Shown here one piece after another: positions 1,777 to 63,828 of a stretch of DNA of 64,000 nucleotides (position 1 is the stretch's first letter; each line of letters begins with the position of its first letter). Made by a program: the position numbers and the translations under genes. The notes under the pieces were generated by a model. It ran no database searches. It saw only the letters and a list, made by a program, of their open reading frames with translations, and was not told where the DNA came from. Source of the stretch: Myxococcota bacterium (GTDB lineage: Bacteria; Myxococcota_A; Bradymonadia; UBA4248; JAVFAO01); the NCBI GenBank assembly GCA_034002465.1, contig JAVFAO010000001.1:1086-65085 (forward strand). Direction: 5' to 3'.

Positions 1777-1807
1777 CTCGTCTTCTCACTCGTGGCGTAG
1801 CTGCGAC

Positions 1808-2935
<1,128 letters not shown>

Positions 2936-3061
2936 GTTCTCTCCAATGCGATCGGTTGCTCTGCGTCGAGGCCGTGTGGTCCACGTCGCGGGTGGGACTT
3001 AGTGTACGACGTTTGCGCAGGGGAAGTCGAGCCAACGCGTGTCGAAGGGGCGATGTCCGAC

Positions 3062-5254: not shown

Positions 5255-5502
5255 AGACCGCGCAGGCTGCGGTCAATGATACACTATACTCGGTTCGCGC
5301 CGAGGGTACGAGCTTGACGCAGGCGGCGCCGCCTCCCGCCATCCGCGAGCAGGAAACGCTCAGCTTCGACGCAGCATACAGAAAAAAGTTCTGCTGCCCG
5401 TCGTGCGCTGGGCAATAGGTGAGCAAGCCACAGGCAAGCCGAACTATTCCAAGCTCGTCGCCGAGAAGCTGTGCGACTCACTTGCGCTGAAGGTCGCTGC
5501 GA

Positions 5503-10673: not shown

Positions 10674-10700
10674 CGAGGCACAGCGTCCAAGCGCGGCTTC

Positions 10701-10805
10701 TTGTCGATTGGGCGCTTGGCCTGTTCCCCAGCTTCCTGTCGATTGGGCGCTTGGCCTGTTCCCCAGCTTCTTGTCGATTGGGCGCTTGGCCTGTTCCCCA
10801 GCTTC
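10701..10805 (-). repeat. Family-1 repeat array, 3 units (period 35)
   Basis: Three copies of ttgtcgattgggcgcttggcctgttccccagcttc, intergenic. Confidence 0.9.
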
Positions 10806-10957
10806 TTGTGCTCATCGTCCTCGTTGCTGGTGTCGAGCCGAGGAACGTGAGATGCTGAGGTCGGCTCGCCAGGGGCCGCGAGCACCTTCGAAGGCTCTCT
10901 TGGTTGAAGCTTGGTGTGCAGCTCAGCGCGTTCAACGAGAGCGTTCGCCCATCGATG

Positions 10958-13658: not shown

Positions 13659-13801
13659 GCATCTCAACCAACGGCGGTCTTGAAGGGAAATGCCTCGAAG
13701 GGGGCTGCCCCTGGTCGGGCACCAGGAACCGCGCCAAGACGAATGCCCGAGCGCATGTACCTCCAGTTTCCAGATTTCGCTCGCTTTCAAAGGGCGCGCA
13801 T

Positions 13802-18530: not shown

Positions 18531-19517
18531 TCAAGTTGATGCTGTGCGCTCCCGGCTTGCCGACTCAGGTGCACAGAGAGGATCCTGTCCGTCGCTATGC
18601 TCCGCGCTGAGCACGCAGCCTCCAGAGCAGTGTCCGCTGACGTGGAGGCTGCGCTTGCGACGCTGGGTTTGATGCGCAAGCAAGACCTCATTCCACGATT
18701 GTGTGCGAAGATCGCCGAGGATTTCTGCAGAGAGGGCGCAGTTTCGAACTCGACCGATGGGGTCGATGCAGAATCCTGGGTTTGGGGACATGGCGGCGCA
18801 AGTGCCGCCCGCGAGCCCGAGGGCGTGTGGCCGGAGGTCAGCAGGGATGGCGATGGCAAGCTCGATTCGCAGACCGAGAAGGGTCTGGCACCGAACGGCG
18901 ATATCGAGCGCCTCCACGACCTGGGCGCGACTTGGATGCAGTCGTCGCAGCGTTTCATCGGTCGAGCTGAGAGCGAGCCGAGAGAAGGCGACGCGCTCAA
19001 TGCCCATGCCAATGGCCAACTCGAGCACGGGCAGCCACTGCTCTGCGTTCTCGGAGGTGCAGACAAAGCTCAGTGAAATCGGCACCTTGGCGCGGAGCAG
19101 TGCCTCCATTCCGCGCAGTGTTGCAGCAAAGCTGCCCTCACCCTTCAAGCGGTCATGCCGGCCGGCATCGGCCGCGAGCAGGGTGGGTTGCAGCATCCAG
19201 ATGCCGAGTCGTGCGAGCTCGCGGGCCTCGGCGTCAGAGATGGACTCGGCGTCGCTGATCAGCGCGACGCCGAGCTGCTGTGCGCGCAGCTCCGCGATGA
19301 CGTCGAAGCAGTCGGGGTGCAGCAGCGGCTCACCACCGGAGAGCATGATCCCGGCAAACGCGCCGGCCCGCGCGGCGCCGATGGCGAGGGCGCAGAGCTC
19401 GCCGCTTGGCAGCGCAGTGTGGGGGCGCAGTGCCTTGGGGAGGGCGCGGTAGTAACAGTAGCGGCACTGCCGCAGGCTGCGGCTGTGCAGCTCGAGGATG
19501 AGGGCGCGCGCGCTCAC
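18531..19517 (-). CDS. Radical SAM/SPASM-like protein with a non-canonical SxxxCxxC cluster motif
   Basis: N-terminus ..[18 protein letters not shown] aligns to the canonical ..TSACNLRCKYCYY motif but has Ser in place of the first Cys. Also has the GGEPLL SAM motif and a C-terminal Cys-rich SPASM-like segment ([21 protein letters not shown]...HCSGGC). The GTG start overlaps the stop of the upstream gene (GTGA). Confidence 0.7.
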
Positions 19518-20584
19518 GCGTGGCGCTCGAGGTAGCGGGAGCGCAGGGCCTGACGTGCGGCTTGCAGGCGCTGATCAAGGTTCCAAGAGCAGCCTTGCAC
19601 GAAGTCGAGTACGGAGATGCGAGCATGGCGCAAATCTTCGAGGCGCGCAGCATCGGCACGCCGCTGGTTGAGGTCTTGTAGCACGGCGCTTTGTCGGCAG
19701 GCGTCTCCGATGCCATCGCCGTCTCGGTCCCACTGCTTGGGGTTGGGAACCTCAGGGCAGTTGTCGCAGACATCGCCAATGCCATCGTCGTCCTGGTCGG
19801 CTTGGTCGGGGTTGGCGTGGCGTGGGCAGTTATCAGGACCAGTGAGGGATGGACAGGGACTATTCTGAGGATAGCCACCGATGATGCCGTCGGCGTCAGC
19901 GTCATAGCTGCACCAGGGTCCGCACGGCGACATGCAGGTCATCTCACTGGCGCAGGCGCTGCCCATGTCGCCGAAGAAATCACAGGCCACCGCCTGCTCT
20001 GGGTTCGGGGCGAAGGGGCAGTTGTCGGTAGCGTCAGCGATGCCGTCGCCATCTCGGTCGTCGTTGTCATCGCAGAGGTCGCCGAAGCCATCGGCGTCTT
20101 GGTCGGTCTGCTCGGGGTTTGCGATGTAGGGACAGTTGTCGAAGACGTCAGGGACGGCGTCGGCGTCGCTGTCGAGTCGGCAGCGGTCATCACAGCAGTC
20201 GAGGGAGTTAGGGTCGAAGCTACAGGCATCTCCGATGCCATCACCATCTTGATCCTGCTGGTCTGGGTTGGCTGCGAATGGGCAGTTGTCGCTGCGATTG
20301 GGGATGCCGTCAGCGTCGTGGTCGGGGTTGCCGGTGGTGTCAAGGCTGGTGTCGACTTCGACGCTATCGGCATCGGCGGGCAGCTCCGCATTGGGCTCGA
20401 GCTCGGTGACCCGGACATGGTCTCGACAACCGACGAGGCTCGCTCCCAGGGCCAGCAGCAGGCCAATGAAGGGGAGCAGCGCCGAGAGCTGGGCTTGGCA
20501 TCCGAGAAGCGAGACGCTGAGTGCGAAGCAGATGCTGCACAGGAGCAGAAGGGAGCGCCACTGAGCTTGGCTGTGTCGCAGCAT
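19514..20584 (-). CDS. Thrombospondin type 3 repeat (TSP3) lipoprotein
   Basis: About 8 calcium-binding TSP3 repeats (DNCPxxxNPDQxDxDxDGxGDxCD), two lipobox-like segments (SLLGC, SLVGC) and a Cys-rich insert. Confidence 0.8.
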
Positions 20585-20961
20585 GTTGTCCTCGTGTTGT
20601 CGGAATGCCTCGGTTCTTTCAAGCTACGCAGATTGGAGGCTGTGCTAGGTGGACCTGGGCCTCGCATTCGGCCGCGCGCTGCTGCTGCCTGGACCGATGC
20701 TGTGTTTCGATGGCGTCGATGCAGACGAAGTCGTTGCAGGGAGCCAGCACGAAGAGCATAGGGAGTTTTGGGGTTGGAATCCAGATGTATTCGCTCGCTC
20801 TCGGAAACCGAGCCCATTGCAGCAGCAATTCTCCTGGGATACCAGGAGGACGTGAGTCTTTCGCGCAGTTGCGACTGCGCTCCACTGTACGTTCCTGAGC
20901 CATCCACAACGGCCTACGGGCTCTCCGAGCGACTTCGGGGCGTGTCGCTCTCCACTCCTCG

Positions 20962-31196: not shown

Positions 31197-31360
31197 GGCC
31201 ATGCAAAGAGGCAGCGAAGGTGCATACCCGGTCATGAAGCGGGGGCATAGCTCGAGAGCGGGCGACTGCATTGACGAGGACGGAGCAGCGGGGCATTGAG
31301 GTGATGGGCTCTGAACGCGGACGGTGTGGCTCTTGGTGAGCGGCGTTCGATGGACAAAGC

Positions 31361-36439: not shown

Positions 36440-38356
36440 TCAGGGGAGCTCGTCACAGCCTTCGGGGATGGCGAGCTCTCGGCGGAAGCTGTGCTGGTTG
36501 AGGGTGGATTTCTTTTCGATTGGGCGCTTGTCCTGTTCCCCCAGGTTGTTTGCACGCAGCCAGGTCCAGGTTCCGGATTCGGTGCAGGCATCTGCTTCGA
36601 GGCCGTAAGTTTCGACGCTGATACGGCGGCTCGCGACGAGTTGGAGCGCGTCGAGGCCACGGGGGCGAACCTTGAGCTCGACGTGGATGGAGACCTTGGT
36701 GGGGTCGGTGAAGTAGCGATCGCAGGCTTCGAAGTTGTGTTCGAAGATGGGCTGAGGGCCGGTCTCGCTGAGGACGATACGATTCCAGGAGAGGCGGACC
36801 TTGTGCTTCGACTTGCCGGTGGCGAGCAGGTCGGCTTCGAAGTCTTGGCTGAGGGCCCGAATGTCGTTTGCGTTTGGGAATTCGAGCTCCTTGTCGAGCT
36901 TGAAGCTTTGTTCTGCTCCGCTCGAGTCGGTGCGGCTGAGCAGCAGGGGCTTGTGTTCTGCGGTGCTGTAGTACCAGCGGCGGATGACGCGTCGGTCGCG
37001 TTGTTCGCTCTCGAGACGGCCCATGACGTTACAGGGTTTCTCTTTGTATATTGCGTTCTTGGCGTACGCGGGTTGGCGATCGCGCGTCAGGCTCGCCTGG
37101 GTCTCTTCGACCACATAGAGCTCGCCCTTGGGGCTTGGCCAGTGTTGGACTGCAACGCGTTGCTCACTTTGTTCGCGTTGCTCTGGCTTTCCGCTTTGGC
37201 TCCAAAGCTTGGTTTCACTTTGACGTTCGAAGAAGCCGTGCGCGTTGAGCTCGAGCAGGTGCTGACGAGATTCGCCGCTCAGCGCTTGGTCGCCATCGGG
37301 TTCTAGCTGTTTGCCGTAGTCGAGCTGGATGTGGAGTCGTGGAGCGGTGGTCTCGGGGAACAGGCGAAGCTGCCCGGTGCGCAGGTCATCATCGTTGTTT
37401 TCGAATCGAAATCGCGCGATGGGGGCGAGCTCTGGCCAGGGCTCGTCGCTCTGTGGGTCGAGCTTGGTCTTGGGCGTGGGCAGGCCGAGGGGAGCGTCGA
37501 GCAGCTGGCGTTGGGCCAGTTGGGGATTGTTGGAGAGGGCGTTGAGCGGGTCGATGCGCAGGCCTTGCGTCGAGAGGGTGAGCAGCTCGCTGCCTTCGAG
37601 CTCGGGATAGAGGTCCCACTCGATGAACAGGGGCGAGGTGGCGTTGATGGTTTGGACCAGCTTGGGCTCGGCGGCGGGTGGGAGCGGTGAGAAGGGAGGC
37701 AGCTCAACGAAGCATGCTTGGGTTTCAGAGAAAGCGTAGAGGATGGGTTGTGTAGAGAGAACCAGAAGCACTGGAGGATCGCTGGGGAAAAGCCAACTGT
37801 CCCCCTCGGATGGGGCCACGCAGGGGGAGCCCTCTGGCAGCGGTGGCACAGGCATGAAGGGTCTTGACTCTGGCAAGGCGAGCCAACGTTCTTGTCGATT
37901 GGGCGCTTGGCCTGTTCCCCCAAGTTCTTGTTGATTGGGCACTTGGCCTGTTCCCCCAAGTTCTTGTTGATTGGGCACTTGGCCTGTTCCCCCAAGTTCT
38001 TGTTGATTGGGCACTTGGCCTGTTCCCCCAATGACTTCGCCGAGCTCACCGGGCTGCACGAAGCGTTCGGCGAGGGCTTGGTTGCAGGCGGCCCAGGCAG
38101 GGCTGGCGGGTGGATAGATGAGGGTGAACGCAGGGGCTGGTGGTGCTTCGGCGAGGTCTTCGGTGGCTGGCTCAGGAGGTGGAGCTTGGACGGTGTCTGT
38201 GAGGGGCTGCTCGGCAGTGGTATCTGTTTGGGGAGCGTTCTGCTCTGGGGGCGGTGTTGGGGCTTGTTCCTTGGGTGTGCATCCGAGGACGGTGGCAATG
38301 CCAAGGGTGACGGCGAGGCTCACGGCAACGCGGCGGGGGTGAGGGGAGCTAGACAT
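36440..38356 (-). CDS. Hypothetical lipoprotein carrying in-frame family-1 repeat insertions
   Basis: Start MSSSPHPRRVAVSLAVTLGIATVLGC (lipobox). Contains (GTGQVPNQQELG)x4 from the array at 37891-38030 and NLGEQDKRPIEKK from the unit at 36514. The longest ORF extends to 38692. Confidence 0.6.
   Translation of the reverse strand: MSSSPHPRRVAVSLAVTLGIATVLGCTPKEQAPTPPPEQNAPQTDTTAEQPLTDTVQAPPPEPATEDLAEAPPAPAFTLIYPPASPAWAACNQALAERFVQPGELGEVIGGTGQVPNQQELGGTGQVPNQQELGGTGQVPNQQELGGTGQAPNRQERWLALPESRPFMPVPPLPEGSPCVAPSEGDSWLFPSDPPVLLVLSTQPILYAFSETQACFVELPPFSPLPPAAEPKLVQTINATSPLFIEWDLYPELEGSELLTLSTQGLRIDPLNALSNNPQLAQRQLLDAPLGLPTPKTKLDPQSDEPWPELAPIARFRFENNDDDLRTGQLRLFPETTAPRLHIQLDYGKQLEPDGDQALSGESRQHLLELNAHGFFERQSETKLWSQSGKPEQREQSEQRVAVQHWPSPKGELYVVEETQASLTRDRQPAYAKNAIYKEKPCNVMGRLESEQRDRRVIRRWYYSTAEHKPLLLSRTDSSGAEQSFKLDKELEFPNANDIRALSQDFEADLLATGKSKHKVRLSWNRIVLSETGPQPIFEHNFEACDRYFTDPTKVSIHVELKVRPRGLDALQLVASRRISVETYGLEADACTESGTWTWLRANNLGEQDKRPIEKKSTLNQHSFRRELAIPEGCDELP
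36514..36549 (-). repeat. Family-1 repeat, single unit
   Basis: ttttcgattgggcgcttgtcctgttcccccaggttg. Confidence 0.85.
37891..38030 (-). repeat. Family-1 repeat array, 4 units
   Basis: ttgt[ct]gattgggc[ga]cttggcctgttcccccaagttc, period 36; the last unit is truncated. Confidence 0.9.
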
Positions 38357-38752
38357 GGCGTCTTTCCTTGGAGCAAGGGCAGAACGGCGGAGTGTCAATG
38401 GTTTGCTGGCTGGCAGCGAGCGTGCGGCACTTCCAATTCTGAGCGAGCTTTGGGTTGGATGGCATCGCATTGGCGTGCCACGCGACGAACCGCCGATGGG
38501 CGGCGTGCAAATCAAAGTTCTAGCACGGAAAGCCGAGTGGGTGGACCGTGCATGAGCGAATAGGCTTGCAATTCTTGCGAGTGAATGAGCAGAATGGAGC
38601 TGCGACGGGGTTGGAAGCCGGTTGTGGTGTTGTGCGCGTCGACTTGGCGCGTTCGGTACGTTGTCCAACAGAGGCGAAGAAGGGGCCGTCATCGAAGCGC
38701 ATCATCGGCTTCGATTTCTGCTCTGGAAGCGCGAGCAACAAGGAGGGAAGCG

Positions 38753-42780: not shown

Positions 42781-42803
42781 GGCTTCCTCAGTGGGACATT
42801 TTT

Positions 42804-42910
42804 TGTTGATTGGGCGCTTGGCCTGTTTCCCCAAGTTTTTGTCGATTGGGCGCTTGGCCTATTCCCCAAGTTTTTGTCGATTGGGCGCTTGGCCTGTGTT
42901 CCCAGCTTCT
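42804..42910 (-). repeat. Family-1 repeat array, 3 units
   Basis: ttgt[tc]gattgggcgcttggcct[ga]tt[tc]ccccaagttt, period 35-36. It overlaps the stop region of the 42859-44898 gene and sits 24 bp upstream of the 41497-42780 gene start. Confidence 0.9.
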
Positions 42911-44898
42911 TTTTCGTCGCGGGCCAAGGTGAGTGCTTCGATTTCGAGGAGTCGCTGTTGGAGCCGCTTCCATGCAAAGAGGAGAGTGTCGATGGGTACC
43001 GGCGCCTCACCCTCTCGATCGATGAACCGGGCGAAATCGATGCTTAGTTCCACCAAGCGACGTTGTTCTTCGAGCAGGGCTTGGAGGGTGGGCGAACGTT
43101 CGGGCTTGAGCGCGCGTGCGAACTCCTCGACTTGGAAGATGATTTGGCCCATTGCGCGCAAGAGGTTGAGGTAGCTGCCGTTTCGGTGCGCGTAGAGATC
43201 CCAGGTTCGCTCCCAGTGTGGGAGCTGAGGCCAGTCCAAGGACGCGCTGGAGAGCTCGGCAAACCAGGCGTGCATGGCAGCGAGTCGCTGGACCTGTCGA
43301 GCGACGTGCAAGCGGCTGAGCTCGAGGATGACGAGGTTGTGTCCTAGGCTTCGTTCTGCGACTGGAATACTCCGCCATCCTTCGATCCATTGGGATTGTT
43401 TCGGGGAGTCTTCGACGATGGGAGAGGGGACGCTGCGGCAGCGGTCGTCACCGCAGGCTTGGGCGATGCTTTGGTGCATGCGTTCGAGGGTGGCATCGAT
43501 TTCGGAGATGGCGAGCAGGACCTGTTCAACCTCAGCGATGCGTGCTGGAGAACGAATGGGGTCGAGGACCTCGCTGACGAAGGGGGTGAGGAGCTTTCCT
43601 CGTTTGCTGAGCCGGAGTGCCTCGGCTTGGAGGCGCTCCTTGCTGGGTGTGATGGCGAAGAACGCGGCGCGCCAGGCGACGCGGTCTTCGAGGACGGGAG
43701 GGGTGTCGTGTCCTTCGGAATCGAGGATCTCGGCGAAGCTTTGCCAGAGCAGGGCGTTGCCTTCATCCCAGTGGTGGAGGATGGCGAATTCGAGACCGAT
43801 CAGTTCGGCGACACGGAGGTCGACGGCGTTTTGGGTGGCGCTGAGTTCAGCGAGTATTTCTCCGGGTGTTTCTTCGTTTTTTCCGAGCGTGACGAGCAGG
43901 GCGCGCATCCCTTGCTGGGCGCGTTGCAAGGCCACTTGCATTTTCAGGCAGTAGTCGAGGCTGCTTGCAGCTCTGCTGACGGTTCGTACGCGCGCGGCGA
44001 TGCATTCTGCTGAGGGCGAGCCCTCTTGGGCAGAGACCAGACGTTCGAGGACTTTGCTCTCGGTGCTGTACTCAGAGACGGCGTCGGAGAGCGCCTCGCT
44101 CTGAGCGAGCCAGGCTTCAATGGCGAGCAGAGGGCCAGTGACGGAGCCTGCAGCATAGCTCCATCGGGCGTCGGTTTCGGTTCTGCTACGCCAGTCGAGC
44201 AAGGCTTCGTGTAAGCGCAGCATCAGCGCGAGTGCCGGCCGATGTCTGGCGAAGCGTGTGACCATTTTGGCATGTAGCCAGTCGCCGTCGAGTCGGCTTG
44301 CGTGCGAGTCGAGCTTTTCGAAGTTCTGGCGTTCGCGTTCGAGGTGACTGAGCAAGGGTTCATCTGCATGTTGCAGCTTGTCGGCGCTGAAGGCTTCGCG
44401 CAGTTTGTCGAGGGAGTCGACGAATGAGCGCGCAGCGAGCTCGAGTCGGCCCAGGGCCCAGAGAACGTTGCGATGCTGCTGCACGAGTTGATGCGCGCCC
44501 AAGGTCCAGGTGTGTGGATGGTGCCACTGCGGATCGACGCTGCATTGTAGAGTTGGTCGTGGTGTGGTGGCGAGAATGAGGGCTGATTCGGCGAGGGTAT
44601 GGTATTCTTCAAAGGCGTCGAGGACGGTTCGCCATTGCTGTCGCGCCTCAGGCTCGAGGCGCGTCTCAAGTGCTTCCGGTATGGCGATACTCTGTTTGAG
44701 TGCTTCGACCCCCGTTCTCCATGCGTGTTCTGGTGTTCCGACTTCATCGTAGCCAACCAGGTGTACGCTGGGGACGCGCAGTTCGGGCATGGGGTGGTCG
44801 ATTCGGTCTGCCGGGGTTTGGCATTGCGAGCAGGCGCCGAGCGACGCGCAGAGCGCGCTCAGGGCGAGTAAGCGCAGGCTTCCTGCAAACGTATGCAT
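42859..44898 (-). CDS. Large hypothetical lipoprotein, preceded by conserved leader element A
   Basis: Start MHTFAGSLRLLALSALCASLGAC (lipobox). Mostly helical, no known motif. The C-terminus is encoded by repeat units (..GNTGQAPNRQKLGE). The longest ORF extends to 45174. Confidence 0.6.
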   Translation of the reverse strand: MHTFAGSLRLLALSALCASLGACSQCQTPADRIDHPMPELRVPSVHLVGYDEVGTPEHAWRTGVEALKQSIAIPEALETRLEPEARQQWRTVLDAFEEYHTLAESALILATTPRPTLQCSVDPQWHHPHTWTLGAHQLVQQHRNVLWALGRLELAARSFVDSLDKLREAFSADKLQHADEPLLSHLERERQNFEKLDSHASRLDGDWLHAKMVTRFARHRPALALMLRLHEALLDWRSRTETDARWSYAAGSVTGPLLAIEAWLAQSEALSDAVSEYSTESKVLERLVSAQEGSPSAECIAARVRTVSRAASSLDYCLKMQVALQRAQQGMRALLVTLGKNEETPGEILAELSATQNAVDLRVAELIGLEFAILHHWDEGNALLWQSFAEILDSEGHDTPPVLEDRVAWRAAFFAITPSKERLQAEALRLSKRGKLLTPFVSEVLDPIRSPARIAEVEQVLLAISEIDATLERMHQSIAQACGDDRCRSVPSPIVEDSPKQSQWIEGWRSIPVAERSLGHNLVILELSRLHVARQVQRLAAMHAWFAELSSASLDWPQLPHWERTWDLYAHRNGSYLNLLRAMGQIIFQVEEFARALKPERSPTLQALLEEQRRLVELSIDFARFIDREGEAPVPIDTLLFAWKRLQQRLLEIEALTLARDEKEAGNTGQAPNRQKLGE

Positions 44899-44981
44899 TC
44901 GTTCGCTCGAGGGCACCGACCTCTCGACAACGACAATTCCTCCGGTATATCGAGAGGATGCGCTCCCCTCGCTCACTTTCG
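44896..44981 (-). promoter_or_regulatory. Conserved 5' leader element, copy A (includes the start codon)
   Basis: Reverse complement reads CGAAAGTGAGCGAGGGGagcgcATCCTCTCGAtataccggaggaattgtcgttGTCGAGAGGTCGGTGCCCtcGAGCGAACGAATG. Homologous to 58409-58479 and 60838-60995. Confidence 0.6.
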
Positions 44982-45366
44982 CTTGCAAGATGCCTCTGGT
45001 TGGTCGTTTCGGGGGCCGAGTCCGAACGAGAGCGGAGCGAATTGGGTCGCGATTTCGCTTGCGCTCGCTCGGTCTTCGCGGTGCTTGGGCGGGCATTGGA
45101 TGTGCACCTCCAGATGCCGACTCAGATGCGCGGCGCGTGCTTCCTGTGCTGGCTGGGCGAAGTAGAGGGAACATGTGGAATCGACTCGCTTGAGCTCAGT
45201 GGGTGGTGACCCGGTTGCTTGTGGGAGTGCGAAGCAGAACCAAAAGAAAAAAAGGTGCACTGAAGGGCACTTCACGGCTTGCCGCGGGAGTGACCTAATC
45301 GGTAGTGTATACCCCCCTGCTTGTGCTTTCCACACAGGCATCTTGGAGAACGTCGAGGACACGTCG

Positions 45367-48300
45367 ATGGCGAACGAGCCCAAAGATCCTTCGCAAGCCC
45401 GCCCTCCACTTCCGCCTACCGCGCGGGCATCGTCGTCGAGCGGTAAAGCGCCGCCGCCGCTCCCGGTGCTGAAGCCGCCCTCACTGCCCAGACCGACCGG
45501 AGCGCCACCAGCACCGCCTTTGCCACCTCTTCCCAGGCCCTCGGGCGATGCCAACGAGGAAGTGATCGAGCTCTTCGATTTGAGCGATGCGGAGCCGGTG
45601 ACCAGTCAGGTCCGCATGGAGGAGCTGAGCAAGCTCGCCTCTCACGGTTCTGCTCGAACCGCAGCACCGCCTCCGCAGCTTCCGCAGTTCAAGTTGCCGC
45701 AACGAGCCGAAGGAGACGCGTCGAGTGACGAAGCGGTCTTGAGTGATAGCCTGGAGGACTTGGAGCAAAGCGAGGGGGGAGGCCACCGGCGCGACACCGA
45801 GGCGATGTCGGTCGCCGACATTTTCGGGCATCGCAAACTGGTGACTGAGGAGCGACGTGCCACGGAGAAAATGGAGGCGGTCGGGGCGCAGTCCGAGAAG
45901 GGGGCGCTGGAGCCGCTCGAGTCAGGGATCGTGGCGTCCGTGCTGGACGAGTTGTCAGATTTGCCGTCGCTCTCTGCGGTCGATTTCGAGGTCAGCAGCC
46001 TTTCTGATCCGCTCGCTTCAGCATCGCTCGCTGTTGCCGACCTCGATCCAGCGCGGCCGACTGTGGATTTGGCCGCGGTCTTACAAGCCCCGGTACGACC
46101 ACAAAGCGCGGTGAGCAGCGCGCCATTGCCTGCGTTATGGGGATTGCGCAACGCGACGCGGGTGGCCCGTCGGGCGAGCGCCAACCAGAGTCGCTTGGGT
46201 GTCGAGCCGACCTTGACCTCCGGCATGTTGCGCATGCGAACGGGGGTCGAAGGAGAGTTCGAGAAGCTCTATTTGCCTGGATTGGCTGTGAGGATGAGCT
46301 CGGAGCTCTTGGCTGAGGTCAGTCAGGTCGAGCCAGCGTTGCAGTCGGCTTATCTGCACTTGGTCGCAACGGCGTGTCGGCAGTCGGTGGTGTCGGAAGC
46401 GAGTACTCTCGCCCGCCAACTCGACACCGAGGCTGTGGAGCTGGATCCGAACCTGCTGTTGGCGCACCTGTGGTTGGTCTTGGGGGCGTGGCGCGAGAGC
46501 GACTGGGAGGATTGTGCCTTGGCGCTGGGGCGCATGGCCACTCAGCTCGATGAAATCGCGCATGTTCGCAAGGAGTTGACGACTCAGCTCCCATTGCTCT
46601 ACACGCTGCTCGAGCTGATGATGGAGTGGCGGCTTTCGGAAAGCAGCGAGACCTTGCTTGCCCTCTGTCAGCACGCCCTCAGCATCGAGGGCAATCGCTT
46701 GGTTGCGTTGCTCAACTTCACGCGCCAGGCCCTCGCTCGGCGCGATGAGCTGGACACGGGCCGGGGTTACCGGGCAGTGATTTCGTCGGCTCCTCCGATT
46801 GTCGCTGAGGCATTTGCCATTGATTGGATGAATCAGCTCTGGCTCGAGCGGGCCGATCCGCGCGCTGCGCTCGGCTTTTGGGAAGAGTTGGGCGAGCTCG
46901 AGGTGCGCGATCCCTATCATTTGGCCTGCGTACAGATGCTGGCTTGGGCCAATCTGTCTGCGTCGCTCGAGATCGTGGCTTTGCGGGGTTGGAGCGCTTT
47001 TGACGAGATGGCTGCATACCAGCCGCGCTCGTCTGACGAGGGCGCGTTGTTGGCGTCGCGTCGGGCTGCGTTCCGCCATCGTATCAGCCTGCTTGCGGCA
47101 CAGCAGGGGGAGCAGCGGGTGCGGGAGATGGAGCTGCACGAGGCCATTGGCCTGGACCCTCTCTGTCCCCTGTACGTCTACGAGTGGGCGGCCGAGTCTC
47201 TTGCTGCGGGCAAACTGAACGCCTATGAGAGCGCCTGCAGCGCGCAGTTGGCCCTGGCGCAAGCGCAGTCTCGTCGTCATGCCATTGCTTTTGCGGCGCT
47301 GAGTCGTGGCGTCGACCTGGATGCGCTCAGCGAAGAGCAGCGCGTTGAGTTGGGTTCCATTGACGAGCCGGCGGCGAAGATGCTGTATGCACGTCATCTG
47401 CGCAAGCTTGGTGAGTCCGAGGCGGCGGCTCGGGTCGAGAGTGCGCTGTGTGCAGAGACCTTGCCGTGGATGGCTGGCGTGTTGGCCGAGCTCGAGCTGG
47501 GAGATTTCGAGCTTGCATCGTCGATTTACCGAGAAGGGCTCGCCAACGGGGCGTCTGACCCCATTCTGCGGGCGAGTCTTCGCCGTTGCGCGCGTGCTCT
47601 GGGGCTCGAGCTCGAGGAGCCTGGGTTTGGCGGGCAGGGGCGAGACAGCAAGTGGCGCATGGCGCTGCAGGCCCAGGGTTTGGACGAGCAGGTCGAGAAG
47701 CTGGGCGAGCTGGTGCGTGAAGACGCCTCAGAGCTGCTGGCTTGGCAGTATCTGATCGAGCGTTTGGTCGAGCAGGGAGATTATCGTCGTCTCGATGCTT
47801 CTTGCCAGAAGCTCTCGTCACTCGCGGGTGGTGACGACTTTCTGAGTCGGTGGGCGCTCGAGTATCGGGTGTTGGTTTTGTCGGCGCAGCCACCAGCTGC
47901 GGGCATCGCGCGGGCGCTCAAGGATCTGGCGACCGCTTACCCCGATTCTGTGATGTTGTGGCAGGGAGAGTACCAGCAGCTCGTTCGGGTGGGGAAGTGG
48001 CAAGACCTGGTTCAGCATTGCGAGATTGAGGCGCGGCGTCATCAGCAGCTTCGGAGCTGGCTGCAGCTTCGAAGTGCGTGGATTGAGCGGACGCTTTTGG
48101 GCAACGCACAGCGTGCTTTGGAGCTGATAGCCGATCTGTGTGTGGAGGAGGAGGCAGCGCCAGTTGTGCGTCAGGCCTTCTGGATGCTGCTCGCCGAGAC
48201 AGGGGATTGGGAGCGTCTGTCCAACGCCTTCGAGCGCATGCTGCAGAGCTGTGGCCCCTCGCCGCGGTCGGCTCTGCTCCAACATTTGGGCTCTTTGCGT

Positions 48301-54775: not shown

Positions 54776-56110
54776 CTATTCGCCTTCGCTGGGAGCGTCT
54801 TGAGCATCCTCGGAGGACTCAGGTGCCTTGGGCTCGACGAGCTTGGCGTTGGCGATGAGGAACTTGAGGGTCGCCTCGCGCTTGGTTTCGGCACCAAGCT
54901 GCTCCTGCATGTGAGGAGCGCGGTAGATGCGCCGGATTTTGTCGATGCTGGTGTTGTGCTGCGCGGCGAGGTTGCGCAGGTATTGCTCTTGGTCGGTGGG
55001 GTTGGCCTCGATGCCCTCACGCTCGGCGATGGCGTCGATGATGATCTGATTTTGGAAGGTGCGGGTGACTTCGGCGTAGACCGAGGGAACGGAACCCTGC
55101 ACCAGCTCTTGGATGGTTTCTTGCGGCAGTCCGCTCTGTGCCCAGAAGCGAGCGGTGTTTTCAATCTGTTCCTGAGTGCGCTGTTGCAGCCAGCCATGGG
55201 GCAGGTCGAAGGGATGGGCATCGCGGAGGCGCTGTAGCAGCAGCTCACGCAGCTGCTCTTCGTGCTGGCTCCTGAGCCGCTCAGCGAGGCGATTGCGCAA
55301 GGATTCTCGCAGGTCCGCCAAGGTCTCGGCGATTCCGGTGTCGCGTGCAAACTCGTCGTCGAGCTCGGGCAGGAGCTTGCTTTTGATTTGCCGAACCGTG
55401 ACTTCGAGCTTGAAGCTCTGGCCAGCGAGGTGGGGAAAGTGGGGGTAGGGCTCTGGTGCAGTGACCTCGACCTCTCGGGCTTCGTCGATGGTCGCTCCGA
55501 TGAGTCCATTTTCGAGGCCGGTTGGGACGATGCCCTCTCGGACCTCAATGAGCTGTCCTTCATTTCGGAATTCTTCGAGGGCACCACCACCGATGCCTCT
55601 GAAGTCGAAGATGACGAAGTCGCCAAGCTCGGCGACCCGGCGATCTTCGACAGGTTCGAGGGAGCGGTGTTTCTCCCGTAGGGCTTCGAGCTCCTGATCG
55701 ATCATCTGCTCGTCGAGCTTGGGAGCGCTGCTCTCGAGCTCGACACCCAGGTAGTCCTGAACTTCGAGCTGGGGCTTCACCTCGGCGTGGAAGCTGACCA
55801 CCACATCGCTGTTCTTCTTCCCTTCATCCTGGATATTCGGAGGAGAGATGAAGATCAGGCCAGGCAGCTCTTGGTTGAGCTTTCGCAGGCGTTGGACCAC
55901 GAGGGTATCGACGGCCTCAGCTCTGACCCGTTTTCCGTAGAGATTGTTGAGCACGTCACGCGGCACCTTGCCGGCTCGGAAACCCTTGACCTGCGCCTTC
56001 TTTCGCAGCGCAGCGAAGCCGCGCTCCTCTTCCTTGCTGAGGTCTTCTTTGGGCAGCGTAATGGTGATGTGTCGCTCGACCCCATTGCGTTCTTCGATCT
56101 GCAAGTCCAT
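54776..56110 (-). CDS. tig: Trigger factor
   Basis: MDLQIEERNGVERHITITLPKE.. with an N-terminal ribosome-binding domain, a central PPIase-like domain and a C-terminal domain. Adjacent to clpP in the conserved tig-clpP order. Confidence 0.9.
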   Translation of the reverse strand: MDLQIEERNGVERHITITLPKEDLSKEEERGFAALRKKAQVKGFRAGKVPRDVLNNLYGKRVRAEAVDTLVVQRLRKLNQELPGLIFISPPNIQDEGKKNSDVVVSFHAEVKPQLEVQDYLGVELESSAPKLDEQMIDQELEALREKHRSLEPVEDRRVAELGDFVIFDFRGIGGGALEEFRNEGQLIEVREGIVPTGLENGLIGATIDEAREVEVTAPEPYPHFPHLAGQSFKLEVTVRQIKSKLLPELDDEFARDTGIAETLADLRESLRNRLAERLRSQHEEQLRELLLQRLRDAHPFDLPHGWLQQRTQEQIENTARFWAQSGLPQETIQELVQGSVPSVYAEVTRTFQNQIIIDAIAEREGIEANPTDQEQYLRNLAAQHNTSIDKIRRIYRAPHMQEQLGAETKREATLKFLIANAKLVEPKAPESSEDAQDAPSEGE

Positions 56111-58151: not shown

Positions 58152-58408
58152 GCAAAACTCCCAAGCTGGTTCCTGGTGTACTATTTCAGAGTCGGTGAGC
58201 GAGCTGGTATCTCTGGACAGAGCGCGTGCTCAGCGCGCTGCAGCAGCAACACCGCTCGCGAGATGCCCTCTCCTTGACTCCATATCATTGCCCCCCATTG
58301 GATGCAATCAGCTGCACGCGCCAACGCCAGACGGGCTTTTCTCTGTCGGGCTCATGACGCTCAGCAGCATTCTTGCTATGCTCAGAGGCGGGAGTGCTGG
58401 ATTGCAAT

Positions 58409-58479
58409 CGAAAGCGAGCGAAGGGTGCTCCATTCTCGCGAGTCATCGAGCGAGGTCGGTACCCGAGAGCGAGCGAATG
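58409..58479 (+). promoter_or_regulatory. Conserved 5' leader element, copy B (minimal form)
   Basis: CGAAAGCGAGCGAAGGGtgctccATTCTCGCGAgtcaTCGAGCGAGGTCGGTACCCGAGAGCGAGCGAATG, 17 bp upstream of the CRTAC1-like gene start. Confidence 0.6.
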
Positions 58480-58495
58480 CAAAGGTGAGGTGGGC

Positions 58496-60703
58496 ATGAG
58501 GCAAGCTTGGCTGATCGTTTGTTGTGGGCTCGCACTGTGCAGCTATGGCTGCGATGACGAGAAGAAGACGCCTCCCCCCGATGAGGTCGACAGTGGCGAT
58601 ATCCAGGGCGATATCCAGGTCGATGCAGAGCTCGATGAAGAGCTCGCTCCAGACGAGCACGACGCGGAAGCTGACGACACCCAGCACGACGACGCTGCGA
58701 GTTGTCCCCTCGAGGTCCCTCTGAGCGTGAGCATCGAGGGGCTGCCCGAGCTGCTGCCGCAGAACACGCGAGAGCTGAGCGTGACGCTACGCTTCTCACG
58801 CGAGCTCTCGGCCTTTCCGCCCGAGAGCGTGCAGCTCGATGGGGGAGCTCAGCTCAATCTGACGGGGGCTGGCGCCGAGTACCATCTGGCCATCTCAGGT
58901 CTCCAGCTCAATGGCGCCTATGCGCTTCGTATTCTCGGTGCTGCGCAAGGGCCCCTCGATCAGTGCGGTGACGGTTTGCCCGATGCGCTCGAGCAAGCAT
59001 TCTACGTCGATGGATGGTCCCTGCGCGAGCCCTGGCAGAGCGCGGCCCTTGCCGAGCGCAGCGCTCCGCTCTTCGCCAACATCAACGAAGAGGCTGGTTT
59101 GAACGGCAAAACCAGCGGGGACTCACGGGCTCAGATCGCCGATGTCGACGGCGACGGGCAGGAAGACCTGGTCGTATGGCCCACGAGTCGCACGCCAATG
59201 CACCCCAAGATCTTCCGTCGTCTTGGCCGTGGTACCCAGATCAGCTTCATGGAGGTCGCGACGTTGCTGGGGATCGGTGCCGCCGATGCGGCCATCTTCG
59301 TCTTCGGAGATGTCGACAACGATGGTGACCTCGACGCGTTCACAGGCACGGCGTACCAAAATCCGGGGACGGAGCTGGGCATCTGGCTCAACGACGGGCG
59401 CGGGGTCTTCTCACGCGTCGAAGACCCCGGTTTTGCTGGCGCCTTCGATCGGCGCTCGGCTGGTCACGATTACTACAAGACCATGTCCGCTGCCTCCTTT
59501 GCTGACTTCGATGGAGATGGCTGGCTCGACCTCTACATCGGGACCTGGTACTCCGGCTCAGCAAGCTCAGGTGGTCAGCTCTATCCCCCCGACGATGAGC
59601 TCTATCGCGGTGATGGCACGGGACATTTCACCCTCGTCGAGCTGCCGTCCCAGCACAACCCTCTCAGCGATACCCACAACCCAGAGCTGGTCGACATCAG
59701 TCGCGCCGCCTACGGCATCGCCGTCGCCGACTACGACGATGACGGAGACCTCGATATCTTCGTCAACAATTATGGCGCTGGGCGCCCTGCCTTTAACCCA
59801 CCGAGCCCACCGCTGTATATCGATCACAACTTCCTCTGGCGAAACGATGGTGACATGAGCTTCACCGATGTGGGCATCGAGGCGGGTGTCGCAGCCACCA
59901 TGCGTGGCATTGGCGGTGTTCAGGAGGAGAGTCCCGTGGTCATCGCGGGTGTCACCTATCCCTCGCCCATTGGCGGAAACGGCTTCGGTTGTCAGTGGTC
60001 CGATTTCGACAATGATGGAGATCTCGATCTCATTGTTGGCACCATTGCCCACCCAGATTATCCTCAGAGCGACAGGACGATGCTTCACGTCAACCAGGGT
60101 GATGGACGCTTCAGCGAAGAGAGCGCCGAGAGAGGACTCGAATACTACGAGGACGAGCTTCATCCAGTCTGGGTCGATGTCGATAACGACGGGCGACTCG
60201 ATCTCGTCGTGTCGCGTTTGCGGGGTGGCTCCAAGTGGGAGTTCTACTTCCAAGACGAGCAAGGCCACTTCGTCAAGCAGAGCTACGCCTTCACTGGGGT
60301 CGACATTCAACGACCCGGTCCGAGTGTCTGGTTCGATGTGGACGAGGACGGGGATCTCGACTTCTACCTGGCGCGAGATGGCGAGGGGATTCTCTACCGC
60401 AACCTCCTCGGTCAGGAGAACAACTGGCTGGTGTTCGAGCTCCACGCCAGTGCTCCGCGTGACGCCACTGGTGCCATGCTCAGCCTCGAGACCAGCACGG
60501 GGACGCAGCGCAGAGACATCAGCTCCGGAAATGGCCACTTCAACACCCAAAGCTCGCGACGGCTCCACTTTGGGCTGGGCGGCGACAATGGTGCCAAGAA
60601 TGTGAGCATTCGCTGGCCCAACGGTGAGATTCAAGAGTTGGGGGCGCTCAAGGCGAACCGGCGTTTGCGCGTGACCCAGGGCGGAAGCATCGAGATGTTT
60701 TAG
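58496..60703 (+). CDS. CRTAC1-family lipoprotein (FG-GAP/VCBS repeats plus ASPIC/UnbV C-terminal domain)
   Basis: Lipobox GLALCSYGC; an acidic linker; about 7 calcium-binding DxDxDG repeats (FGDVDNDGDLD etc.); C-terminal GNGHFNTQSSRRLHFGLG..VSIRWPNGEIQ. Confidence 0.8.
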   Translation: MRQAWLIVCCGLALCSYGCDDEKKTPPPDEVDSGDIQGDIQVDAELDEELAPDEHDAEADDTQHDDAASCPLEVPLSVSIEGLPELLPQNTRELSVTLRFSRELSAFPPESVQLDGGAQLNLTGAGAEYHLAISGLQLNGAYALRILGAAQGPLDQCGDGLPDALEQAFYVDGWSLREPWQSAALAERSAPLFANINEEAGLNGKTSGDSRAQIADVDGDGQEDLVVWPTSRTPMHPKIFRRLGRGTQISFMEVATLLGIGAADAAIFVFGDVDNDGDLDAFTGTAYQNPGTELGIWLNDGRGVFSRVEDPGFAGAFDRRSAGHDYYKTMSAASFADFDGDGWLDLYIGTWYSGSASSGGQLYPPDDELYRGDGTGHFTLVELPSQHNPLSDTHNPELVDISRAAYGIAVADYDDDGDLDIFVNNYGAGRPAFNPPSPPLYIDHNFLWRNDGDMSFTDVGIEAGVAATMRGIGGVQEESPVVIAGVTYPSPIGGNGFGCQWSDFDNDGDLDLIVGTIAHPDYPQSDRTMLHVNQGDGRFSEESAERGLEYYEDELHPVWVDVDNDGRLDLVVSRLRGGSKWEFYFQDEQGHFVKQSYAFTGVDIQRPGPSVWFDVDEDGDLDFYLARDGEGILYRNLLGQENNWLVFELHASAPRDATGAMLSLETSTGTQRRDISSGNGHFNTQSSRRLHFGLGGDNGAKNVSIRWPNGEIQELGALKANRRLRVTQGGSIEMF

Positions 60704-60837
60704 CTGCTTCCAGCCTGCGTGACGAGCTCGAGAGTGTTGCTCCATGTTCTCGGCAGGAATGCGGATTTCACTGGGTTCCTTCGTTGTTCTGGGCTGTGAC
60801 CAACTTCGACAAGCCTGCAAGTGGAGTCGAAGACCAC

Positions 60838-60995
60838 CGAAAGTGAGCGAAGGGCACGTATCCTCTCGACATTCCGCAGGAACTCGGAGCCAGAGGGCGG
60901 AGAGTCGCTGCGAAGCAAGCCCGAAGGGTGCCCGCCAGAGAACGCGGGCGACAATAGTAGCTGTCGAGAGGTCGGTGCCCGAGAGCGAACGAATG
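60838..60995 (+). promoter_or_regulatory. Conserved 5' leader element, copy C (extended loop)
   Basis: CGAAAGTGAGCGAAGGGcacgtATCCTCTCGAcattccgcaggaactcgg..(88-nt loop in total)..GTCGAGAGGTCGGTGCCCGAGAGCGAACGAATG. An SD gaggaggg and the ATG at 61014 follow. Confidence 0.6.
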
Positions 60996-61013
60996 CGAAA
61001 GAGGAGGGCAGCA

Positions 61014-63518
61014 ATGCAGTGCATCAAACGAGGGGATGTTCGACAGACTTGGCGCAGCGCGCTCGCAGCGCGCGCTTTGCTCTTGGTATCGATGCTATTT
61101 GCATTTGTGCCGCTGGGCTGTGGCACCCTGAGCGAGCTCTCTCTCGATCTGAAGAGCTGTGCGGTCGACGCTGACTGTCCTGACACCCAGCACTGCGTGA
61201 TGGGGTACTGCGTGGAGCAGGCGGATCTCGCTGCCGAGCTGGATCAGGAGCAGCTCTGCGGCGCCATGAGCTGCCCTGAAGGCTATGATTGTTGTGGCAC
61301 GGTCTGCGTCGATCTTGCGAGCTCTTGTTCGATGGGCGAAGGGGGCGAGCAGAATTGTCGTAATCTCGACAACTGTGGACTCTGCGGCCGGGCCTGTGAG
61401 TCTGGTGAAACCTGTGTGGATGGCGCTTGCCTCTGCGGTGCTGTGGAGTGTCCTGCGTCCCAGGGGTGCTGTGACGAGCGCTGCGTCGATCTCTTCGAGG
61501 ATCTCGAGAATTGTGGTGCTTGCGGTCGCGTTTGTGAGGGGCAGACCGACTGCTTCTTGGGACGTTGCGAGTGCTTGTCCTTCACTGGGGGAAGTGAGCC
61601 GTGTGGCCCGGAGCAGAGTTGCTGTCCCAGCAATGGCTGTTTCCGTCTGGACGACGATCCGCGGGCTTGCGGTGCCTGTGGGAGTGAGTGTCAACCGGGG
61701 GAACGCTGCGTCGAAGGGCAATGCGTCTGCGGCGAGGACGGGAATGAGACGCAGTGCACGGGTGGGCAGAGCTGTTGTCAAGGCAGCTGTGTGGCGTCGA
61801 ACGCTCCGGCTTGCGTTTGTGGTGACGCAGGCTTGTGTGGCGTGGGCGAGGGCTGTTGTCTGGGCAGCGACGGTGAGCCGAGTTGCGTCGACCTCGCCAC
61901 GTCCAGTGAGCATTGCGGCGCGTGTGGCGTCGTGTGTGCTGAGGGAAGCCGCTGCGAGGACCGGCGCTGTGTCGCCTATTGTCCGCCAGGGCGCGAGCGC
62001 TGCGATGAGCGCTGCGTGGAGCTCAACAGCGATCCGGAGCATTGCGGCGCTTGCGCGAATGCTTGCCCGGAAGGTGCAGTCTGTGCCGCAGGCGTTTGTG
62101 TGTCGACCTGCCCCGTAGGCTTTGTCGATTGTGATGGTGCCTGCGTCCAGACAGGGCAAGACGTCGAGCACTGTGGGGGCTGCGGGCTCGCCTGCGACGG
62201 TAGTGAGGTCTGTAGTCAAGGGCTGTGCAAGAGCAGCTGTGAGCCGGGGGAGTCCAATTGTGGGGGCGACTGTATCGACTTGGTGTCGAATCGGCTCCAC
62301 TGCGGTACCTGTTTCAACTCATGTGTAGGCGGATTGCTGTGCCAGGGGGGCAAATGTAGCTCCACCTGTGACCCCAACTGGTTCAACTGCGGTGGCTCCT
62401 GCGTGCAGCTCGATCGTGACCGAAACCACTGTGGAAGCTGCGGAAACCAATGCGCTTCAGGTGAGATTTGTCAGGGAGGAGTGTGCCGCTTGAGCTGCCC
62501 GAGTGGACAGCTGATCTGTGGCGGGAGCTGCGTGGATCCCCTGAGCGACAGTCGATTCTGCGGTGCCCGCAGTCCCTGTGACACCGCAAACCGAGGTGAG
62601 GAGTGCGAGGAAGGTGAACTCTGCTTACTCGGGCGATGTGAGGCCAACTGTGGAGGCGGGCTCATCAATTGTGGAGGACTCTGCGTCGATGTCCAGAACA
62701 ACCCATCGCACTGCGGTACCTGCGGGACCGACTGTTCGGAGCTGCCGCATGCACCCAACTCCTACTGCTCTGCTGGCGCGTGCAAGCTTAGATGTGCGGC
62801 GGGCTTTGGAAACTGTAACCAGCAGCTTGCAGACGGTTGTGAGAGCAGCTTGTCGAGCATGAGCCACTGCGGTGCTTGCGGCAAGAGCTGCCCGACGGCC
62901 AGCGGTGTGTCGTGCTCGGGCGGACAATGTGTGTTGAGCTGCTCCTCGAGCACGGTTGACTGCAATGACAACCTAGCGGATGGCTGTGAGACCAACAGCT
63001 CTATCAGCCTCAACAACTGTGGTGGCTGTGGCCGTGTTTGTGCGTCCTATCCCAACGCTTCGCGTTCGTGTGACGCGGGGCAGTGCACCGCCGCCTGTCT
63101 GTCCGGTTTCGCCAACTGCGACTCATCCTTCGAAACGGGCTGCGAGACCGAGCTGTCGACTTCGGCGGCCCACTGTGGGCAGTGTCATCGTCCCTGTACC
63201 AACGAACACGGTGAGTCGGCCTGTGTCAACGGTGAGTGCGTACTCACGTTGCCCTGTGAAGAGGGTTGGGACGATTGTGATGGCGATCCGTGGAATGGCT
63301 GTGAGACTGCGCTCAATACGCCTGAGGATTGCGGAGCGTGCGGGCTGCAATGTGGCCTGGGCGCAAACTGTGAGGCGCAGCTCTGCGTCTGTCCAGACAC
63401 CTCGGGCAGTGGTGAGCTCTGTCCTGTTGGTCACCATTGCATAGGTGATAGCTGTTTTTGCGGGTTCGGAGAGGCCTGCTCTGATGGGGAACCCTGTGTG
63501 GGCGGGCTTTGCCGGTGA
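61014..63518 (+). CDS. Tandem cysteine-rich repeat lipoprotein (Myxococcus-type Cys-rich repeat-like)
   Basis: Lipobox AFVPLGC followed by more than 15 modules of about 38-40 aa with the pattern ..HCGACGxxCxxGxxCxxGxCxxxC.. The element ATG at 60993 is in frame as an alternative start. Confidence 0.75.
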   Translation: MQCIKRGDVRQTWRSALAARALLLVSMLFAFVPLGCGTLSELSLDLKSCAVDADCPDTQHCVMGYCVEQADLAAELDQEQLCGAMSCPEGYDCCGTVCVDLASSCSMGEGGEQNCRNLDNCGLCGRACESGETCVDGACLCGAVECPASQGCCDERCVDLFEDLENCGACGRVCEGQTDCFLGRCECLSFTGGSEPCGPEQSCCPSNGCFRLDDDPRACGACGSECQPGERCVEGQCVCGEDGNETQCTGGQSCCQGSCVASNAPACVCGDAGLCGVGEGCCLGSDGEPSCVDLATSSEHCGACGVVCAEGSRCEDRRCVAYCPPGRERCDERCVELNSDPEHCGACANACPEGAVCAAGVCVSTCPVGFVDCDGACVQTGQDVEHCGGCGLACDGSEVCSQGLCKSSCEPGESNCGGDCIDLVSNRLHCGTCFNSCVGGLLCQGGKCSSTCDPNWFNCGGSCVQLDRDRNHCGSCGNQCASGEICQGGVCRLSCPSGQLICGGSCVDPLSDSRFCGARSPCDTANRGEECEEGELCLLGRCEANCGGGLINCGGLCVDVQNNPSHCGTCGTDCSELPHAPNSYCSAGACKLRCAAGFGNCNQQLADGCESSLSSMSHCGACGKSCPTASGVSCSGGQCVLSCSSSTVDCNDNLADGCETNSSISLNNCGGCGRVCASYPNASRSCDAGQCTAACLSGFANCDSSFETGCETELSTSAAHCGQCHRPCTNEHGESACVNGECVLTLPCEEGWDDCDGDPWNGCETALNTPEDCGACGLQCGLGANCEAQLCVCPDTSGSGELCPVGHHCIGDSCFCGFGEACSDGEPCVGGLCR

Positions 63519-63828
63519 AACGAGCTCTGGGGTGGCGTTGCCGGTTGACATCGCTGCTTCCCAACGAGCCTGCGATGCTTCGGTCGGCAGCGAGCGAAGA
63601 CGCTTCTTGCCAACGGCCTTGCGCCCACAGCAGCGCGTCGATACTCTGTGAGCGGGCGAAATGGGCGTTGAGATTTGACAGCGTTCTGAGCCCATCCTGT
63701 TGGCTTGGCTTGTGCGCAGAGGGAACGCGGAGAGACTACCCCCACGCCTTGAACAAGCACGACAAGGCCGACGTCAGACTGCCTGTATCCTTTCGGGGAT
63801 GCTTTTGGGGAGCGAGTGGAGGTGGCGC

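Follow-up and report, generated by a model that had tools for sequence, protein, structure and literature searches.

In an uncultured Myxococcota genome, a short sequence with two conserved flanks and a central hairpin lies just upstream of a lipoprotein gene, named here gene B. The stretch of DNA analysed, hereafter the window, is 64,000 nt long. The position of this sequence, named copy B, raises the question of whether it is a leader RNA dedicated to the control of gene B, as a preliminary description had supposed, or one copy of a repeat scattered through the genome. Copy B turns out to belong to a dispersed family, which is probably a non-autonomous palindromic repeat of the MITE-like or Rickettsia-palindromic-element-like kind.

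Sequence and boundaries of copy B

Copy B and its surroundings can be described as follows.

58405-58479, + strand: copy B, a 75-nt short-form unit CAATCG...CGAATG, delimited by sequence and covariance models
58409-58425, + strand: 5′ flank, CGAAAGCGAGCGAAGGG
58414-58419, + strand: 5′ half of the outer stem in the minimum-energy fold, G14-C15 / GA / G18-C19
58423-58428, + strand: 5′ arm of stem P1, GGGUGC (GGGTGC), opposite GUACCC at 58459-58464, one of the pairs being G.U
58434-58439, + strand: 5′ arm of stem P2, UCUCGC, pairing with GCGAGG at 58450-58455 through 6 pairs including one U.G
58458-58479, + strand: 3′ flank, GGTACCCGAGAGCGAGCGAATG
58477-58488, + strand: mini-ORF ATG CAA AGG TGA, the ATG being the last three bases of the element
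58496-60703, + strand: gene B, a lipoprotein of the CRTAC1 / FG-GAP / UnbV_ASPIC family (MDX9719132.1)

The junctions of the unit are marked by TGCA at 58403-58406 and 58478-58481, and its first base lies four bases before position 58409, where it had been thought to begin. The flank patterns each have 3 matches in the window, against 0-0.25 expected, which greatly exceeds chance. The second half of the outer stem is found at 58469-58474 (GC / GA / GC), and the stem includes a tandem G.A internal loop. In P1, the fourth pair is U-A where most copies have C-G, a compensatory change. Both flanks, the GGGTGC/GTACCC pair and a short central hairpin had been recognized from the beginning and are indeed present in the sequence. 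The hairpin had been drawn with about 5 bp and a 4-nt loop; a short hairpin stands, but the best-supported central stem is UCUCGC/GCGAGG, the 6 pairs of which close the apical 10 nt GAGUCAUCGA (58440-58449), the CGA-gtca-TCG pairing being a possible alternative to it. In the modelled apical part, GA/GA and a G-C pair may form around UCAU.

Copy B is retrieved with 79.1 bits by covariance model R1 and with 68.6 bits (E = 1.6e-19) by model R2, which was built solely from copies outside the window, without any window sequence. Its closest relative, the unit L020_2 from another contig, is 89% identical. Folded alone, copy B is indistinguishable from shuffled sequences (z = -0.49), so that the support for its structure is comparative.

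The product of gene B is 100% identical to NCBI protein MDX9719132.1 (735 aa), with its start at ATG 58496, 16 nt past the end of copy B and behind an SD-like GGTGAGGTGGG (58484-58494). The succession of the mini-ORF ATG CAA AGG TGA and of a real start further on, as originally read, is thereby confirmed, 58496 being the start of MDX9719132.1.

Folding of the element

Each unit, on its sense strand, forms a single irregular hairpin over its whole length. Starting from the ends, this hairpin comprises a TGCA/TGCA terminus, an outer stem GY/RC + GC/GC with the tandem G.A loop, P1 (6 bp) and P2 (6-9 bp), to which the 90-nt form of the element adds P3 (5 bp, GAA loop). The same architecture is seen in the single-sequence folds of the two other intact window copies, A and C, and in the minimum-energy (not the centroid) fold of copy B. 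RNAalifold, given alignments of four and then fourteen copies, finds the same helices unaided. When the named structure was tested on the 14-copy alignment (28 pairs), 88.9% of the cells were in standard pairs; in slid controls, 24-45% of the cells were paired. Two-sided pair changes numbered 9 versus 4.3±1.1 in shuffles, of which none in 500 reached 9. Columns 22/168, for instance, a pair of the outer stem, covary as U-A (9), C-G (2) and U.G (1). The terminal TGCA/TGCA helix is 75% paired, without covariation.

Comparison of copy B with L020_2 is instructive. The 8 differences all fall at stem positions and keep pairing (three double and two wobble changes), the unpaired bases being all identical. 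In short-form relatives, P2 reads CCCCGC/GCGGGG (L020_2) or CCACAC/GUGGGG (L024_2). More generally, stems are compensated and loops invariant across the copies. On this comparative basis, the covariation and the stem-confined, pairing-preserving changes between copy B and L020_2 show that the stem-loop is real and under constraint. For nine well-conserved copies, the sense fold is better than the antisense one by 2.3-11.9 kcal/mol, an advantage not seen for the L023 copy and three decayed copies.

Several known motifs were considered and set aside. By inspection, the GAA/GAGA loop does not conform to the consensus of a kink-turn or of a sarcin-ricin motif. CsrA binding to the loop motif CCGNAGGA cannot define the family because copy B does not have that loop, and an integron attC site was discarded as no GTTRRRY core is present.

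Copies in the window

The window was searched with the covariance models on both strands, with filters off. Three intact copies (A, B and C) and one decayed copy (D) were found. Besides copy B, the features are the following.

44896-44985, - strand: copy A, 90-nt standard form, 86.6 bits with R2, terminal ATG at 44898-44896
60834-60995, + strand: copy C, 162-nt long form, differing from the standard form by 72 nt inserted in the apical region
61014-63518: gene C, annotated as a cysteine-rich protein, starting 18 nt past copy C
20788-20877, - strand: copy D, degenerate, its sequence kept with many pairs lost, 36.2 bits with R1 and 26.9 bits with R2
31201-31271, + strand: possible relic of a copy, a weak match with recognisable flanks and changed stems, 11.3 bits with R1 and 16.3 bits (E = 0.02) with R2

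The loop of 22 nt reported for copy A is correct; that of copy C, by the same definition, measures 94 nt and not 88. Copy D is located about 200 nt upstream of a thrombospondin-repeat lipoprotein gene (19514-20584, - strand), and the possible relic at 31201-31271 upstream of an ORF starting at 31361. Weak partial matches to the GAGCGAA-containing flanks (E = 0.02-4) also occur at 63578-63661 (+), 13768-13809 (-), 38542-38593 (+) and 46000-46041 (-). The first three are directly upstream of start codons, in the same direction as the gene, and the last one is antisense within a gene encoding a 2919-aa TPR protein. These four matches may be relics or chance.

Between the end of the element and the annotated start codon there are 16 nt for copy B (58480-58495), 18 nt for copy C (60996-61013) and 17 nt (L022:3300-3316) for a copy at L022:3139-3299 in another contig. 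The Shine-Dalgarno sequences of genes B and C sit outside the element hairpin. It was considered that the SD regions following copies B and C could be relics of a second unit; this was rejected, their alignment to the 5′ end of the element giving p = 0.14 for B and a marginal p = 0.018 for C. The start annotated at NCBI for gene A (42859-44898, minus strand, RBU37_00160) is the terminal ATG of copy A itself. An in-frame CTG, with AGGAAG before it, is also observed 18 nt beyond this ATG (44877).

The window genes downstream of copies all encode lipoproteins or secreted proteins. The proteins downstream of A, B and C are mutually unrelated, being respectively a helical protein without Pfam domain, a CRTAC1-like protein and a STIG1-like cysteine-rich protein. 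The closest homologue found for gene B, in another genome (P0002, 57% identity), has no element upstream. Consensus scans for promoters or terminators yielded no sites, and a promoter or terminator function was therefore rejected. No match to Rfam was found in the window at gathering thresholds, and a search of 58300-61100 at E up to 10 returned just two unrelated chance matches.

A second repeat family was noticed in the same region. Its 36-nt (sometimes 35-nt) unit, TTGGGCACTTGGCCTGCTCCCCCAAGTTCTTGTCGA, occurs in head-to-tail runs of 3-4, with 19 matches versus 0.03 expected. Its arrays are located as follows.

8564-8717: TTGGGCACTTGGCCTGCTCCCCCAAGTTCTTGTCGA array
10696-10809: TTGGGCACTTGGCCTGCTCCCCCAAGTTCTTGTCGA array
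13832-13982: TTGGGCACTTGGCCTGCTCCCCCAAGTTCTTGTCGA array
37883-38031: TTGGGCACTTGGCCTGCTCCCCCAAGTTCTTGTCGA array
42800-42903: TTGGGCACTTGGCCTGCTCCCCCAAGTTCTTGTCGA array
L022:8184-8273, and inside L022:3139-3300: further occurrences, in another contig

Gene A terminates at its 3′ end in one of these arrays, which encodes ...GNTGQAPNRQKLGE*, the stop codon lying within a unit. Units of this second family are also nested in copies of the palindromic element, as in L022_2, and the predicted protein P0245 contains a similar peptide.

Copies in other contigs and within predicted genes

No close relative of the source genome is present in the databases. The best homologue of the trigger factor encoded in the window, among 5.8 billion proteins, is 34% identical, which indicates that the metagenome-assembled genome (MAG) belongs to a very isolated lineage. 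In this trigger factor (54776-56110, - strand), only Trigger_N and Trigger_C are recognized by Pfam, with no FKBP-type PPIase domain.

Copies within predicted proteins were found by translating all three sense frames of the element and searching protein databases, a procedure limited to sense frames that antisense in-gene copies would escape. Six outside contigs hold seven intact units, one 5′-truncated copy and three decayed or interrupted copies; in all, two or three assemblies contributed about 20 copies. Ten units are in contigs of JGI 3300044603, and at least five more in other RBU37 proteins. Units within predicted proteins are listed below.

P0239 (JGI 3300044603, locus L020): one 90-nt and two 75-nt units, head to tail and in frame
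P0241 (RBU37): one unit, directly after a HEAT_2 domain
P0242 (RBU37): an ivWA domain between two diverged units
P0248 (RBU37): the 162-nt form, translated, near the C-terminus; no Pfam match
P0245 (RBU37, 80-aa ORF): mostly one unit, with a further insert in the loop

P0241, P0242, P0245 and P0248 carry RBU37_ locus tags, as do the window genes; their units thus belong to the window's own genome. In P0239, the units separate a weak, sub-threshold match to FMN_bind from clear Fer4_5 domains. Pfam matches are found beside the insert or on both sides of it in the predicted genes for P0239, P0241 and P0242. In P0246, the unit is read in a different frame. The in-gene status of these copies is a predicted one, and because stops are inherently absent from two sense frames out of three, some of the read-throughs could be gene-caller fusions.

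The same JGI sample contains intergenic copies in L022, L023 and L024 and a 5′-truncated copy in L021. Two other units of the 75-nt form are found at L020:389-538 and one at L024:4832-4906, the latter within a second mixed array (L024:4742-4906). Copy B, initially regarded as an isolated minimal version, is therefore no one-off and is a member of a recurrent 75-nt subfamily. Some copies are found 92-540 nt from the next gene. Around the array of L024, the region 1646-8380 contains defence-island signature genes (AAA_15/AAA_21 ATPases, GmrSD_N, DUF3696).

In a second MAG, BF4_123 (locus L004), a 5′-truncated copy adjoins an RHS-repeat fragment. This orphan RHS/YD-repeat fragment is upstream of the truncated element, and several short hairpin-like repeats GACTCCGCTCAGCGGAGGCGACC occur downstream of it (L004:1-440, minus strand as read). 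A scan of genome contigs with TCGGTNNCCNNGAGCGARCGAAT gave, among the matches listed, at least ten chance matches and one true copy, that of L004. Of two metagenome scans, one gave none and the other only chance matches (L025, L026). A viral scan returned 2 chance matches, both within coding sequence, and blastn against phages and plasmids found no element.

Organization and possible origin of the family

The lengths of the units, 75, 90 and 162 nt, define three discrete forms and are all multiples of three. The GC content of the element is 58-65%. All units read CAATCG...CGAATG, and most have TGCA at both junctions, shared by neighbouring units in arrays. The terminal inverted repeats, TGCAATCG and CGAATGCA, are complementary at 7/8 positions. 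The TGCA(A) present at both junctions is itself palindromic, so that it would look the same whether it is part of an inverted terminal repeat or a duplication of the target. The terminal ATG is the last triplet of every intact unit. In the in-gene copies it encodes Met; in intergenic copies, the frame that it opens either meets a stop after 2, 3 or 6 further codons or stays open over a long stretch. Stop-free frames are unremarkable at 61% GC, and only the multiple-of-three lengths are suggestive. Neither a transposase, nor an empty site, nor an unambiguous target-site duplication was found, and, in the window and the outside loci examined, none of the isolated element termini flanks a larger element.

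All 7 copies not found through translation have the same orientation as the downstream gene. Both element orientations occur on the contig studied here, the GC skew of which is uniformly positive; thus, the orientation bias follows transcription and not replication. Such an orientation, which follows transcription, would not be expected of DNA that is purely selfish. Also to be set against the repeat reading is the asymmetry of the arms, on which the purine motif GAGCGAA is repeated directly and not in inverted form.

With copies ahead of genes, between genes of the same direction and, in frame, within predicted coding sequences, the family looks more like a small element of the selfish-DNA type than like a dedicated switch. 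It would spread, or would have spread, in the manner of a MITE, mobilized in trans by an enzyme recognising its folded ends. Arrays would arise when new units land in the TGCA end of resident units. Copy B would then be a passenger, presumably a neutral one, in the 5′ untranslated region of gene B: its hairpin, of about -30 kcal/mol as predicted, would end 16 nt before the start codon and leave the Shine-Dalgarno sequence free, and its terminal ATG would give rise to the 3-codon ORF fortuitously. If copy B acts on expression, for instance by way of transcript stability or of access to the ribosome-binding site, this would be secondary.

Considering the properties of the copies, several other explanations may be envisaged. 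A leader RNA dedicated to cis-regulation, riboswitch-like or protein-binding, with the 3-codon upstream ORF taking part in the control, would account for the covarying hairpin and, in the window, for its sense orientation beside start codons. It is very unlikely in view of the tandem arrays and in-frame copies in predicted proteins, the absence of any genuine Rfam match even at E = 10 and the unrelatedness of the genes that it would regulate, to which may be added that the closest gene B homologue found, at 57% identity, goes without the element. The regulatory upstream ORF once proposed loses its basis in the same way: its ATG is the element's own terminus and the frame that follows varies from copy to copy, so that neither the length nor the presence of a mini-ORF is conserved; moreover, in copy B the mini-ORF AUG has no Shine-Dalgarno sequence and lies within the terminal stem. 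A reading at the DNA level, in which the GAGCGAA-containing flanks would be direct-repeat sites for a transcription factor, can invoke the fact that AGCGARCGAA occurs 8 times in the window versus 0.8 expected. An operator is extremely improbable, though, with a flank spacing ranging from about 40 to 130 bp, with copies inside genes and with a 5′-flank Y that covaries with a 3′-flank R at non-equivalent positions of the repeat. The early preference for a stem-loop over a fixed-spacing protein operator is upheld by alignment folding, which gives one consistent architecture with compensatory changes. At the protein level, the unit might be a peptide module, QSKVSEGH...ERSVPESERM, selected for a role in proteins, and P0239, P0241, P0242, P0245 and P0248 do read the same frame. 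This agreement is biased because the search covered sense frames only, and P0246 reads the unit in another frame. Furthermore, the window copies are intergenic, the frame of copy B stops after 3 codons, and the stem changes are compensatory in nucleotides and non-synonymous on one arm (VER versus GAR); a peptide module is thus highly improbable.

The remaining possibilities concern how the repeat moves and what its transcript does. As a REP/REPIN-type element, it would be moved as single-stranded DNA by a RAYT or an IS200/IS605-type Y1 transposase recognising the hairpin. The compensated stems, the clustering of units into arrays, the strand-specific fold with its tolerance of G.T pairs and a target-site duplication that cannot be demonstrated all agree with this idea, which copies inside genes, the lack of a conserved GTAG and an orientation tracking local gene direction, not the replication strand, make unlikely. 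As for the transcript, the repeat reading leaves unexplained the sense orientation, the strict stem compensation and the three copies ending 16-18 nt before a start. Sense orientation, asymmetry of the two arms and placement before starts keep two further explanations alive. In one of them, possible if somewhat unlikely, the element is a mobile repeat, the copies of which preceding a ribosome-binding site (A, B, C and L022_2) have been co-opted as portable 5′-leader hairpins, and would, for example, stabilise the transcript or tune the translation of genes for envelope or secreted proteins. Such co-option fits with three copies ending 16-18 nt before the annotated start and a fourth supplying the start, with every copy being sense-oriented, with strictly compensated stems and invariant loops, with the greater stability of the sense fold in well-conserved copies and with the lipoproteins or secreted proteins encoded downstream in the window. 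It has to be set against the other copies, which are 92-540 nt from the next gene, in genes or in arrays, and against the location of the SD sequences of B and C outside the hairpin, which leaves no obvious switch; the link to a gene class is itself weak because exported proteins are very common in Myxococcota. The other explanation, quite unlikely in our opinion, is that of a mobile structured RNA module, the sense transcript of which is the functional form, selected to fold, hence its compensated stems and invariant purine-rich loops, and to be translatable, hence its lengths in multiples of three, and placed or retained preferentially just before ribosome-binding sites. This module would be a portable leader read by an RNA-binding protein, or would be copied via an RNA intermediate.

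Comparison with known systems

With structured 5′-leader RNAs, the element shares a conserved, covarying sense stem-loop placed directly upstream of window start codons. It differs from them in that it matches no Rfam family, precedes genes that share no function and is not conserved in the closest homologue found, and in that copies are not restricted to the 5′ leaders of related genes, being also inside genes and in tandem. A false lead is removed: the three "leader" copies of the window do not signal a regulon, and the 3-codon ORF simply results from the way in which the element ends.

Hairpins kept by compensatory change, clustered copies and the absence of a classical duplicated target are reminiscent of REP / REPIN sequences associated with RAYT. 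REPs are extragenic and have a GTAG motif adjoining the palindrome. Here, copies also occur in genes, within predicted proteins, and have no conserved GTAG.

The family is closer to bacterial MITEs such as Correia/CREE, ERIC, RUP, BOX and QMITE, which are small, without transposase, and have inverted termini and many copies (PMC10969869). The 75-, 90- and 162-nt units fall well within the size of these elements (under about 500 bp), contain no transposase gene, are dispersed as several copies in one genome and have terminal inverted repeats. Folded transcripts and occasional in-frame fusions are also features of MITEs, which affect neighbouring genes (PMC10969869). The present element has 58-65% GC, whereas a typical MITE is AT-rich; it also has a parent IS and target duplications that can be recognised as direct repeats, as against the ambiguous TGCA at the junctions here.

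In-frame insertion of palindromic sequences is an established MITE-type behaviour, the most extreme case being that of the Rickettsia palindromic elements (PMC10969869). Like these, the present repeats are short and palindromic, fold stably into a hairpin as transcripts and occur at unrelated loci (PMC10969869). Frequent in-frame insertion in genes with read-through of a conserved peptide, here in predicted genes, and the existence of several length families complete the resemblance (PMC10969869). The sizes are 75-162 nt here versus about 100-150 bp in Rickettsia. In contrast to the Rickettsia elements, the present ones are hosted by a GC-rich member of the Myxococcota, form head-to-tail arrays of mixed forms and are, in all copies seen, in sense orientation. 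The likeness is therefore one of mode of behaviour only, and membership is not claimed. Such behaviour is best known from Rickettsia, where the elements have been discussed as a source of new protein segments. An apparently undescribed, coding-compatible family of palindromic repeats is documented here in a deeply branching Myxococcota lineage. With its sense orientation, its compensated stems with invariant loops and its placement 16-18 nt before starts, it offers a good test case for distinguishing selfish DNA from selection at the RNA level.
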